Shown piece by piece: positions 5,946-9,973 of a stretch of 26,365 nt of DNA. The position numbers and the translations under genes were made by a program. Below the pieces are notes generated by a model. The model ran no database searches. It saw only the letters and a program-made list of their open reading frames with translations, and was not told where the DNA came from. Within the stretch, counting starts at the first letter, position 1. Each line of letters opens with the position of its first letter. Source of the stretch: Gemmatimonadota bacterium (lineage in GTDB: Bacteria; Gemmatimonadota; Gemmatimonadetes; Gemmatimonadales; GWC2-71-9); the NCBI GenBank assembly GCA_029884275.1, contig JAOUIC010000001.1:1-26365 (forward strand). Direction: 5' to 3'.

Positions 5946-6809
5946 ATGCGTGTGATTCCGATGACCGCGGGTCTCCTGCTCGTGGCTGGTGCCGCTTGGG
6001 CGCAGGGGACCTGCAAGCCCGGCGATGGCTCCAATGAGGCCGAGGTTTTCCGGGACATGTCGGTCCCGCTGGCATTCAGTCAGGGGCAGGCGCCATGGAC
6101 TTTCCTTCCCGGGGCGATTCTCGCGGTGGCGGAGGTATCCGACGTCCCGACGATCGACGATAAGACCGCCACCCCCTCGAAGTGCCGGCCCGGCACCGGC
6201 CCCGACAACTGGGGGTCGGTCAGTATCGCGCCCAGGCTCCGGGTCGGGTTCTCGCTCTCCAACGCGGCCATGCTCGAAATGAGCTGGACTCCGCCCATTC
6301 GCATCTCGGGGGTCAAGCCCAACCTGTGGAGCTTTGCGCTTTCCCGGACGGTCCCGCTTGGCAAGAAGGGGGCGCTGATGACCGGGCGCATCCACACCAC
6401 GATCGGGAGTATCCGGGCTCCGGTGACCTGTTCAGAGGACGCCGTCGATGACCCCACGGATGTCTGCTACAACGGCGAGGTCTCCGACGACAAGTACAAG
6501 CCTGGCATCTACGGGGGCGAGCTGACCATCGGCAAGGACTTCGCCGGAGGGCGCCTGCGGCCCTACGCGGGCGGCGGGTACAACCTGCTGCGGCCGCGGT
6601 TCGAGCAGGATGCGCGCGATTCGACCGGCCAGAAGCTGGACCAGAAGGTCGAGGTCAACACCGGCCAGTGGATCGTCTTCGGCGGCCTCACCTGGGCCAT
6701 CGCTCCCGCCTTCCACGTGAGCGGCGAGGCCTACTCGGCGCCGGCGGACGCCTTCACCTGGCGGGCCCGGGCGACCTACGTGTTCGGGGGGAAACACAAG
6801 CGGCGCTAG
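5946..6809 (+). CDS. Secreted, probable outer-membrane beta-barrel-like hypothetical protein
   Basis: SD AAGGAG; signal peptide MRVIPMTAGLLLVAGAAWAQG; alternating amphipathic strands (RLRVGFSL, LRPYAGGGYN, WRARATYVF) with a near-terminal aromatic YVF. Confidence 0.7.
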   Translation: MRVIPMTAGLLLVAGAAWAQGTCKPGDGSNEAEVFRDMSVPLAFSQGQAPWTFLPGAILAVAEVSDVPTIDDKTATPSKCRPGTGPDNWGSVSIAPRLRVGFSLSNAAMLEMSWTPPIRISGVKPNLWSFALSRTVPLGKKGALMTGRIHTTIGSIRAPVTCSEDAVDDPTDVCYNGEVSDDKYKPGIYGGELTIGKDFAGGRLRPYAGGGYNLLRPRFEQDARDSTGQKLDQKVEVNTGQWIVFGGLTWAIAPAFHVSGEAYSAPADAFTWRARATYVFGGKHKRR

Positions 6810-6842
6810 CCGCCTCCGTTCTCCCAGGGGCCAGGAGATCGC

Positions 6843-7229
6843 GTGCACGGGCTGATCGAACGACTGCAGGCCGCGCTGGCAGGTCAGTACCGGGTTGACC
6901 GGGAGCGGCACCTCCCCCTTGACGAGAGGGTCGGTCTCATGGGGGAGTGCGCCAGCGCACTCGACTGCGCTCACGCCGCCAGCATCATCCACCGCGACAT
7001 CAAGCCCGAGAATGTCCTGCTGAGCGGTGGCCAGGCCTTGGTCGCCGACTTCGGCATCGCCCACATCGCCGAAGGCGCCCAGCCGCTCACCGAACCGAGC
7101 AGCGGCGCCTGCACGAGGAATTCCGGGCGGTCGCCCGGGACTGATCAGTCGGCGGCGTCCGCGAGGGGAAACTGCTCGCCCCCGGCCAGCCGCCGCTCCA
7201 GCGCTGTGAAGTCCAGGTCGGGGTCGTAA
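6843..7229 (+). pseudogene. Ser/Thr protein kinase remnant with internal deletion and 3' truncation
   Basis: SD AGGAG and GTG start. HRDIKPEN and ADFGIA are intact, but the Gly-rich loop, VAIK lysine and alphaC Glu are absent, and similarity stops after QPLTEP (~7100). The rest of the ORF runs antisense into rnhA. Confidence 0.8.
7124..7139. terminator. GC hairpin just downstream of the rnhA stop
   Basis: CCGGGC-GGTC-GCCCGG, 5 nt after the rnhA stop; no U-tract, so weak support. Confidence 0.3.
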
Positions 7230-7777
7230 CCGGGAAACTGCCCCTTCGCCTGCCGAGTCGAGAGCCAGCCGCCGAACCCCGACTCGACCGCCCCTTGGCT
7301 GGTGACCTGATCGGTCGCCGCCTTCACCGCGAGGTCGTTGGCGTACTCGTTCTTCGGGTGTCCCTGATGCCCCCGCACCCAGGTCCACTGGGCCTCATGC
7401 CGCGCGGCGGAGTCGACCAGCACTCTCCATAACTCCAGGTTCTCGATCTGCCCGCCCTTCCGCGTCCACCCGCGTGATCGCCAGGCGGGCACCCAGTCCC
7501 GCATTCCCTTGACCAGATATTCGGAGTCCGACACCAGCAGCGCTTTCAGCCGCTTGCCCTTCCCGGCAAGGAGCTGGAGCCCCGCGATGGCTCCGGCCAG
7601 CGCCATGCGGTTGTTGGTGGTGTCGGGAGCGTGGATGTAGAAGTCGCGGCGCTGGATCGCACCGGCGGACCGGACCTCGATCAGGCCGGCGGCGCCGCCA
7701 GGCGTGGCGCGGTCCTGGCCGTTGCCGAGGCAGCTCTCATCCAGATGGAGAATTGCGATGGGAAGTGGTGCGGGCAC
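7145..7777 (-). CDS. rnhA: Ribonuclease HI with variant active site
   Basis: [26 protein letters not shown]...GW, NLELW and [18 protein letters not shown] align with type 1 RNase H. GTG at 7777 is the only canonical start near the N-terminus, so the start is uncertain; it overlaps usp by 41 nt. Confidence 0.88.
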
Positions 7778-8606
7778 CGGAGGGGACGGGTGGCATGTGG
7801 ACCAGGACCGGGATGTCGGTCGCCCGCAAGATAGCCTCGGTGTGGGAGGGGACCAACCACGCCTCGCCCTCCTTGGTGGCGCCGGCGAAGACGGTATCGG
7901 CGCCGAATCGCTCGACCGCCTCACCGATGCCCTGCTCGAGGTCGCCCTCGACCGAGTGCAGATCGAACGAGACCATGGCCAGGGAGAGCGCGCCGGAGGC
8001 GCGGGCGATTGCCCGCGCTCCCGCTTCTGCATCCCGGGAGACGTGCACCACGTCGAGATGGGCGCCGGTGATGCTCGCGAATCGGGTGGCGAAGGCGAGC
8101 GCTCCCTCGCTGGCGGGCCCACCGCCGTACGCCACCAGCACCCGGTCCATGGCGGTGGTGGTCGTGCCGCACACCAGCACCGGCCGGGGGCAGCGGCGGA
8201 TCAGCTCTCGGGTTTCGGGACCAAGCGGGTCCTTTGCTCCCTGGACCCCGGTTCGGCCGACCACGACGACGCCCACGTCTTCGGCCAGTGCCCGCAGGAT
8301 GTCCGGCACCAGGCCCTGACGCCAGATGGTCTCTACTTCCAGCCCGGCGCGGCGGCCCGCGCCGGCGCTCTCCTCGAGCATGTCGCGAGCGGCCTGTTCG
8401 TGCTGAACGCGTGAGGCGGGTATGCTGCCGGGGGTGAACTCCATCCAGGGCGCGCCGAGCGCCATCTCACCCGTCTGTCCCGGGGGCGGGGTGACGTGGG
8501 CGAGGACGAGGCGGGCACGGAATCGCTGGCCGATCTTGATGGCCTGCGAGAGCGCCACCTCCGCCTGGAGTGAGCCGTCGAGGCCCACGAGGATGGAGGT
8601 GAACAT
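7737..8606 (-). CDS. Universal stress protein, tandem two-domain
   Basis: MFTSILVGLDGS...LVLAHV, VVVGRTG...LG..TRELIRRCPRPVLV, then a second domain RVLVAYGG...ILRATDIPVLV; 289 aa. Confidence 0.9.
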   Translation of the reverse strand: MFTSILVGLDGSLQAEVALSQAIKIGQRFRARLVLAHVTPPPGQTGEMALGAPWMEFTPGSIPASRVQHEQAARDMLEESAGAGRRAGLEVETIWRQGLVPDILRALAEDVGVVVVGRTGVQGAKDPLGPETRELIRRCPRPVLVCGTTTTAMDRVLVAYGGGPASEGALAFATRFASITGAHLDVVHVSRDAEAGARAIARASGALSLAMVSFDLHSVEGDLEQGIGEAVERFGADTVFAGATKEGEAWLVPSHTEAILRATDIPVLVHMPPVPSGARTTSHRNSPSG

Positions 8607-8612
8607 GGCCTG

Positions 8613-8641
8613 AGGGTGGCACCCTGCCGCTGCCCCGTCAA
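8613..8641 (-). promoter_or_regulatory. Sigma70-type promoter TTGACG-N17-CACCCT
   Basis: -35 at 8641-8636, 17-nt spacer, -10-like hexamer at 8618-8613, 6 nt before the usp ATG; no SD. Confidence 0.55.
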
Positions 8642-8678
8642 GTAGCAGCTGGGAACGGGCCCGCGGTGCACGACGGCG

Positions 8679-8900
8679 TCAGACCTCTCCCAGCACCCTC
8701 AGGTCCTGCAAGTCCTCGAGAATGAAGGCCATCTCGTCACCCGTCATTGGCAGCCTGCCGATCAGCGCCTCCCGGCCCCCGATCTGGGTCATGCGGACGG
8801 CGGTGACGATGAACTCGGTGCCTCGCCGGTCTACGGCGACCCGGCGGCCGTCTCGCACCGCGCGCTCGAGCTGGTCGAGTCGTTCGGGGCTCCAGCGCAT
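8679..8900 (-). CDS. Small hypothetical protein (73 aa), possible Sm/SH3-type WYL-like fold
   Basis: ATG at 8900 lies 2 nt after the selD stop. MRWSPERLDQLERAVRDGRRVAV... reads as one helix followed by beta strands. Confidence 0.75.
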   Translation of the reverse strand: MRWSPERLDQLERAVRDGRRVAVDRRGTEFIVTAVRMTQIGGREALIGRLPMTGDEMAFILEDLQDLRVLGEV

Positions 8901-8902
8901 CG

Positions 8903-9973
8903 TCAGCGCCCTCCCGTCTCGACCATGATCGTCCCCGTGGCCGTGGTGAGCTCCCCCACCACGGCGGCGCAAGGGGTCCCGGCTCGTTCGAGTGCCGTGA
9001 GCAGGAGTGCGAGGCGCGCCGGTGCAACTGCGAGCAACAGCCCCCCCGAGGTCTGCGGATCGGCGAGCAGCAGCTGGTCGCTGCGCGTGGTGCCGCGGCC
9101 CCATTGCACCTGGCCGAGCGCGTCGAGGTTCCTGGTGGTGCCACCTGGCGCCACGCCCTGTTCGGCGAGCGCCCTGGCCCCGGCCAGCAGCGGCACCTCG
9201 GCGGTCCGGATATTCGCCCCGACCCCACTCGCCTCGACCATGTTCGCGAGGTGGCCCAGCAACCCGAATCCCGTGACGTCGGTGGCGCTTCGCACCCCGG
9301 CGGCGAGCGCGGCGTCCATCGCGCCACGGTTGAGGGTGGTCATCACCATGATCGCCTCGGCCAGATCCGACTCCGGCAGAAGGTCACGCTTGAGCGCGGT
9401 CGTGAGGATGCCGGTGCCGATCGGCTTGGTGAGCACCAGCAGGTCGCCGGGGCGCGCGGTGGCATTGGTCAGCAGACGGTCCGGATGGGCCTCGCCGATG
9501 ACCGCAAGTCCGACGTGGGGCTCCGGGCTGTCGATCGAGTGGCCGCCGACGATCGGGCAGGCCGCAGCGGCCGCCACCTCGCCTAACCCGCCGATCACTT
9601 CCTCGAGCACCGTGAACGGGACGGTGTCGCGCGGCCACCCGACCAGGCTCAGCGCAAAGAGCGGCACCGCGCCCATGGCGTAGCAGTCACTCAGGGCATT
9701 GGCCGCCGCGATCCGTCCCCAGGTGAACGGATCATCCACCACCGGCGCAAAGAAGTCCGTCGTGGCCACCAGGGCGCGATCGCCGTCCAGCCGGTACACG
9801 GCGGCGTCGTCGCGGGTGGCCGCGTCCACCAGGATGCGCGCATCCCGGACCGGGGGCAGGCGGCGCAGCACGTGCGCCAACTCGGCGGGGCCGAGCTTGC
9901 AGGCTCAACCCGCGCCGTGCGACAGCTGGGTGAGCCTGATGCGGGGGCGCTGGTCTCGGGGAGTGTCTGGCAT
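8903..9973 (-). CDS. selD: Selenide,water dikinase (selenophosphate synthetase), selenocysteine-containing, 356 aa
   Basis: DDAAVY, TTDFF, AAANALSDCYAMG, GGHSI, DVTGFGLLGH and DPQTSGGLL motifs. The frame extends upstream of the ORF-track TTG through an in-frame TGA (9907-9905) to ATG 9973: MPDTPRDQRPRIRLTQLSHGAG-U-ACKLGP. Confidence 0.95.
9876..9904 (-). promoter_or_regulatory. Candidate bacterial SECIS hairpin
   Basis: Directly after the UGA: GCCUGCA-AGCUCGGC-CCC-GCCGAGUU-GGC, an 8-bp upper stem with one G-U pair, and GCC/GGC able to close a lower stem. Confidence 0.55.

Follow-up and report, generated by a model that had tools for sequence, protein, structure and literature searches.

E. 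coli RNase HI, the canonical type 1 RNase H, has a DEDD active site formed by D10, E48 on helix A, D70 and D134. Its D134N variant stays active, and substitutions of E48 are severe. A different arrangement is reportedly found in LC9-RNase H1, for which a 2013 study is said to have shown the Glu shifted from helix A to strand beta1, where it neighbours the first Asp in the manner of RNase H2; the enzyme is said to have been described, crystallised and mutated more than 10 years ago, in work attributed to Kanaya et al. in 2010 (J Appl Microbiol 109:974) and Nguyen et al. in 2013 (FEBS Lett 587:1418). LC9-RNase H1 comes from a leaf-branch compost metagenome, and its structure, PDB 4IBN, was released in 2013 under a title that presents a type 1 RNase H with a type 2 active-site motif. 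In the excerpt of PMC4239480 that summarises Nguyen et al., the enzyme has a DEDN motif and is evolutionarily distinct, and an excerpt of PMC6411959 records that it was found by genetic complementation and is active without the conserved DEDD/E motif. Type 2 RNases H (RNase HII, PF01351) are a different family encoded by a different gene, and they have the catalytic Glu immediately behind the first Asp.

The window considered here is the whole stretch of 26,365 nt that was analysed (assembly GCA_029884275.1, contig JAOUIC010000001.1), from a Gemmatimonadota metagenome-assembled genome (MAG). Its rnhA gene very probably provides a Gemmatimonadales bacterium with its housekeeping type 1 RNase H and is a member of the LC9-RNase H1 subfamily known from the literature, with E14 standing in for the lost helix-A Glu. 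Since this arrangement has been published and LC9-RNase H1 was crystallised in 2013, we are dealing with a known subfamily and not with a discovery; the novelty implied in a first-pass annotation of the window falls away, the subfamily being already on record as LC9-RNase H1 and PDB 4IBN. A catalytic Glu that changes place while the fold around it is conserved makes a good textbook example of active-site plasticity, and one already described.

The rnhA gene and its product

The gene and the parts of its product on which the comparison turns are as follows.

7145..7777, minus strand: rnhA, LC9-type RNase HI, a 210-aa coding sequence (P0001), assigned by Pfam, PDB match, AlphaFold2 model and VIA-align
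7736..7741, minus strand: D13-E14 (GAT GAG) on strand beta1, from codons read directly and alignment
7703..7717, minus strand: QDRAT, residues 21-25, a five-residue insertion in the beta1-beta2 loop that is also present in 4IBN, from alignment
7601..7603, minus strand: A59 (GCG) in TTNNRMAL, at the place on helix A where canonical enzymes have their Glu (E. coli E48), from HMMER alignment
7526..7528, minus strand: D84 (GAC), third of the catalytic residues and counterpart of E. coli D70, within SDS, from HMMER alignment
7337..7339, minus strand: N147 (AAC), counterpart of E. coli D134 at the fourth site of the active centre, within NEYAND; it yields a DEDN motif
7148..7300, minus strand: C-terminal extension, residues ~160-210, TSxGxVxSGFxxWL...DPD, from alignment and predicted fold

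Translation starts at a GTG codon, an assignment backed by aligned homologues that open with MPA or VPA...PIAVLHLDES at the same position, and ends at a stop codon at 7147-7145. A promoter and terminator scan of positions 6800-8800 returned no candidates. In the HMMER alignment with E. coli RNase HI chains, D13 (GAT, 7741-7739) falls on D10, the first catalytic Asp, and E14 (GAG, 7738-7736) on G11. Direct reading of the codons and this alignment bear out what the first-pass annotation had described, namely that D10 and D70 are kept, that E48 has become Ala and D134 Asn, and that G11 has become Glu.

The sole Pfam match of the product is RNase_H (PF00075, E 1.7e-24), and the same search gave no match to the RNase HII domain, PF01351. 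Against the NCBIfam RNase HI equivalog (NF001236) it scores 113 bits, below the cut-off of 160, as would be expected of a divergent subfamily. An AlphaFold2 (AF2) model built on 40 homologues has a pLDDT of 95.3 and a pTM of 0.91.

Comparison with LC9-RNase H1, E. coli RNase HI and type 2 RNases H

The best PDB sequence match is 4IBN (HMMER, E 5.2e-50, 48% identity), and the two proteins have a 16-residue stretch and NEYAN in common; TTNNRMAL, with A59, is likewise identical in 4IBN. Structural comparison of the model gives the same partner, both with Foldseek (E 3.9e-21, 48% identity) and with VIA-align, which places 197 residues at an rmsd of 2.7 A with a Z of 25.4; canonical RNases HI reach at most Z 19.8, with E. 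coli RNase HI at about 19. Shared with LC9-RNase H1 are the type 1 fold, the D-E pair on beta1, Ala in place of the helix-A Glu, the third Asp, the fourth-site Asn that completes the DEDN motif, the beta1-beta2 insertion and a superposable C-terminal extension. The two are nevertheless separate proteins, about 50% identical, ours from a Gemmatimonadales MAG, and they differ in their last ~10 residues.

With E. coli RNase HI, at 33-37% identity, the product has in common the fold, the basic protrusion, the first and third Asp, TTNNRM and SDS. The E. coli enzyme, a canonical DEDD protein, differs in having G11, E48 and D134 where the product has E14, A59 and N147, and in having neither the loop insertion nor the C-terminal extension. 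In the alignment the beta1-beta2 loop reads GNG-xxxxx-PGG in the LC9-type subfamily, as against GNPGPGG; the insertion is a signature of the subfamily. The product thus departs from canonical DEDD RNase HI in carrying A59 for the helix-A Glu and in scoring under the equivalog cut-off, and it shows each LC9-type character considered: fold and domain, D-E on beta1, Ala at helix A, third Asp with Asn, placement in the clade described below, and the extension.

The first-pass annotation had also pointed to a C-terminal extension of roughly 50 aa, and this is borne out. The HMMER alignment with E. coli RNase HI stops at residue 156 of 210, leaving ~50 aa, and the extension is retained in homologues of 206-213 aa, with TSxGxVxSGFxxWL common to the LC9-type subfamily in the alignment. 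The AF2 model predicts it to be folded, with helices at 168-177 and 186-198 and a pLDDT of 97-98 up to residue 200. The sequence alignment with 4IBN runs to residue 174, and the structural alignment pairs model residues 1-205 with chain residues 10-209; because VIA-align covers model residues 1-205 on 4IBN and only residues 4-159 on canonical RNases HI, the extension is common to LC9. As modelled, it is a folded part of the LC9-type subfamily architecture.

The adjacent D-E pair is what the product shares with type 2 RNases H. The RNase HII of the source genome lies on another contig, reads GVDEVGRG and is of the normal type. Together, rnhA and this separate, normal RNase HII give the cell one RNase H of each type, 1 and 2, both with adjacent D-E.

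Distribution in Gemmatimonadota

We considered how widely the substitutions occur. Among the 120 best clusters of close homologues at 90% identity, which are 73-100% identical to the product and several of which are named Gemmatimonadales, 117 read D-E-A-D-N and three D-E-A-D-D. That D-E-A occurs in 120/120 also means that the substitutions are not specific to this contig; their restriction to it was what the first-pass annotation had set beforehand as counting against its reading. Across the class, D-E/A/D is found in all 31 Gemmatimonadetes loci compared (the window's own among them), which represent several families at 43-62% identity. Sixteen of these loci have N at the fourth site and 15 have D; H or T occurs rarely in the subfamily. 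This position is free to be N or D. Position 148 varies among D, E, H, V, A, M, F, G, T, R and S in the same 31 loci, and H140, the equivalent of E. coli H124, is not conserved in the class-wide loci.

When 201 Gemmatimonadota genomes were searched with the Pfam RNase_H profile, all but two gave one match. One of the two is G154, in which rnhA is divided between two contigs; PF00075 scores are weak in G126 and G154, where the genes are cut by contig ends and are LC9-type. The survey includes four unpublished genomes (G057, G097, G157 and G182), and its conclusions are unchanged without them. Within the 181 class-level genomes there is one PF00075 gene per genome, so the cell has no type 1 RNase H besides the LC9-type one. 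A scan for TTNNRMAL and [AL]DESCLGN[GQ] identified at least 579 GTDB species genomes with confirmed relatives, the best 80 of which are almost all Gemmatimonadaceae or Gemmatimonadota MAGs.

In family f9 and the three families that belong to other classes, the LC9-type enzyme is missing and its place is taken by a short RNase HI of the canonical kind, with TNNQAEY and RAD; the type of RNase HI therefore switches within the phylum. The LC9 enzyme now has a natural home: in eight of the nine Gemmatimonadetes families sampled, no type 1 RNase H other than its type is present. The short enzymes at seven loci from f9 and other Gemmatimonadota classes (L033-L037, L118 and L119) are ~140-150 aa long, lack the basic protrusion and read DGA.RGNPGP, TNNQAEY, SDSEL and NKRAD.

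Coupling of the two Glu positions

The first-pass annotation had suggested looking for covariation of G11E with E48A, and this is what the sequences display. Two collections were compared, one of representatives drawn at 50% identity from the whole protein universe and the other a second set of homologues. In both, the residue after the first Asp and the helix-A residue occur as E+A or G+E, and the G+A state is absent. Every E14-bearing sequence in the class-wide loci, the close homologues and the second set has Ala at the A59 position, the chimera P0205 aside. The 17 D-E/A rows of a maximum-likelihood tree group together in a single clade (SH-aLRT 100, on a long branch of 1.21) that includes P0128, the nearest relative of 4IBN; P0398, which reads DGEDD, falls outside it. 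The earlier suggestion that the pattern might be lineage-wide and mark a distinct subfamily is thus upheld, by the census (31/31 and 120/120) together with this single, fully supported clade. As judged from these sequences, the Glu swap has a single origin, and surviving intermediates were not found among them.

Two candidates for such intermediates were rejected. P0205 (D-E...E-D-D), the only E+E sequence seen, might be taken for a two-Glu evolutionary intermediate, but it is an assembly chimera on an ENA contig of 1059 bp: its N-terminal half resembles Palauibacter-type LC9-like enzymes and its C-terminal half canonical Myxococcota-like ones, with the join at TTNNRM. It stands as a caution for the mining of 'intermediates'. 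P0260 appeared as DE+E in a pairwise BLAST alignment and is DG+E in the multiple alignment.

A probable relocation of the catalytic carboxylate

In the mechanism that we propose, the helix-A Glu at the E. coli E48 position is replaced by Ala, and E14 on beta1, immediately after D13, would supply the carboxylate, as in the D-E motif of type 2 RNases H, with Asn in place of Asp at the fourth site. By analogy with LC9-RNase H1, the product is most probably an active RNase H of the two-metal kind, its active site made up of D13, E14, D84 and N147; from the same homologue we infer that the protein of this window would itself be active and that E14 would contact metal. The replacement of the lost E48 carboxylate by the new Glu, as the first-pass annotation had proposed, is supported by analogy through the title of 4IBN and the excerpt of PMC4239480, both of which concern the homologue, where the replacement is reported to have been established by experiment.

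Loss of both the helix-A Glu and the fourth Asp could alternatively mean that the protein is a catalytically dead RNase H-like pseudo-enzyme that binds hybrids. The severity of E48 substitutions in E. coli RNase HI, for which E48A and other mutant structures are present among the PDB matches, and the score under the equivalog cut-off would both fit such a protein. We nonetheless consider it very improbable, as D13, E14 and D84 are invariant throughout the subfamily, these genomes have no other type 1 RNase H, and the excerpts cited above describe the LC9 enzyme, which is 48% identical and has the same active-site residues, as active and able to complement E. coli. There is also a small chance that the protein is active and that E14 replaces nothing, catalysis relying on fewer carboxylates or on a further acidic residue, for instance E144 or D148. 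D148 is placed directly after N147, but its position varies freely, whereas E14 never changes and always occurs together with A59, and the depositors of 4IBN themselves call the site a type 2 (D-E) motif.

The remaining explanation, that sequencing or assembly errors or recent decay produced the substitutions on the source contig, might draw on the state of the source genome, a fragmented MAG in 579 contigs that is 73% complete. Its likelihood is close to nil: the same residues recur in hundreds of independent assemblies, so that the homologue census refutes it, and the frame is intact, with a pLDDT of 95 for the AF2 model. An active enzyme in which E14 takes over from the helix-A Glu is the reading that we retain.

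Upstream genes and a small Sm-like protein

On the minus strand, rnhA is preceded in order by a selD-like gene with AIRS domains (9880..8903), a 73-aa open reading frame and a gene for a tandem universal stress protein (Usp).

7737..8606, minus strand: tandem universal stress protein gene (Pfam Usp, E 5.7e-29, in two stretches)
8679..8900, minus strand: gene for a 73-aa Sm-like small protein (P0428), from locus comparison and predicted fold; it is context and not part of the enzyme

The 3' end of the Usp gene overlaps the start of rnhA by 41 nt (7737-7777). Its TGA stop codon (7739-7737) falls within the catalytic D13-E14 codons, GAT GAG. Usp adjoins rnhA in only two of 110 related loci, and selD is also rarely a neighbour. 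The Usp gene has been inserted between rnhA and the small gene in a lineage-specific manner.

The small gene itself, in most Gemmatimonadales loci, lies directly upstream of rnhA on the same strand; this holds for 68/80 Gemmatimonadaceae-type loci and 13/30 class-wide loci, with a median gap of 11 nt. Its family is present in 78 of 96 genomes of family f1, 36 of 38 of f2 and 2 of 3 of f8, with one marginal match in f7 (E 3e-4), and was not found in f3-f6, where the LC9-type enzyme is present, or in f9-f12; the tally includes the unpublished G057, G157 and G182, and the conclusions are unchanged without these. Since the small gene adjoins rnhA and was not found in the LC9-bearing f3-f6, it is linked to rnhA and not required by it.

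The P0428 family is limited to Gemmatimonadota, and the protein has no sequence match in Pfam, NCBIfam or the PDB. Its model (pLDDT 92.7) consists of a helix followed by five strands and resembles Sm-like barrels, with YaeO/Rof at Z 9.9 and Hfq at Z 9.5-9.8, as well as the WYL domains of CapW, DriD, PafBC and BrxR at Z 8-8.8. Invariant in the family are E12, R13, A14, R20, R25, R26, G27, E29, V32, P51, T53 and G54. Homology to Rof was considered and rejected, as a profile comparison with E. coli Rof gave a probability of 2.6% and the likeness is at the level of fold only. Five near-complete Gemmatimonadetes genomes (G045, G122, G125, G103 and G133) gave no Pfam match to Hfq (PF17209) or ROF (PF07073).

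It is conceivable, if rather doubtful, that the LC9-type rnhA and the gene for the ~70-aa Sm-fold protein form a conserved two-gene unit in Gemmatimonadales, in which the small protein is a functional partner of the RNase H. Such a partner might, for example, bind single-stranded nucleic acid or R-loops and recruit or regulate the RNase H. We know of no such partner described for RNase HI.

Downstream region

Convergent with the 3' end of rnhA is a further reading frame.

6843-7229, plus strand: Ser/Thr protein kinase remnant

The remnant passes from an N-terminal prelude straight into an 11-residue stretch and DFG, and covers only positions 91-155 of the 263 in the Pkinase profile. It has no glycine loop, N-lobe or C-lobe, and is probably a decayed gene or the product of an assembly deletion.
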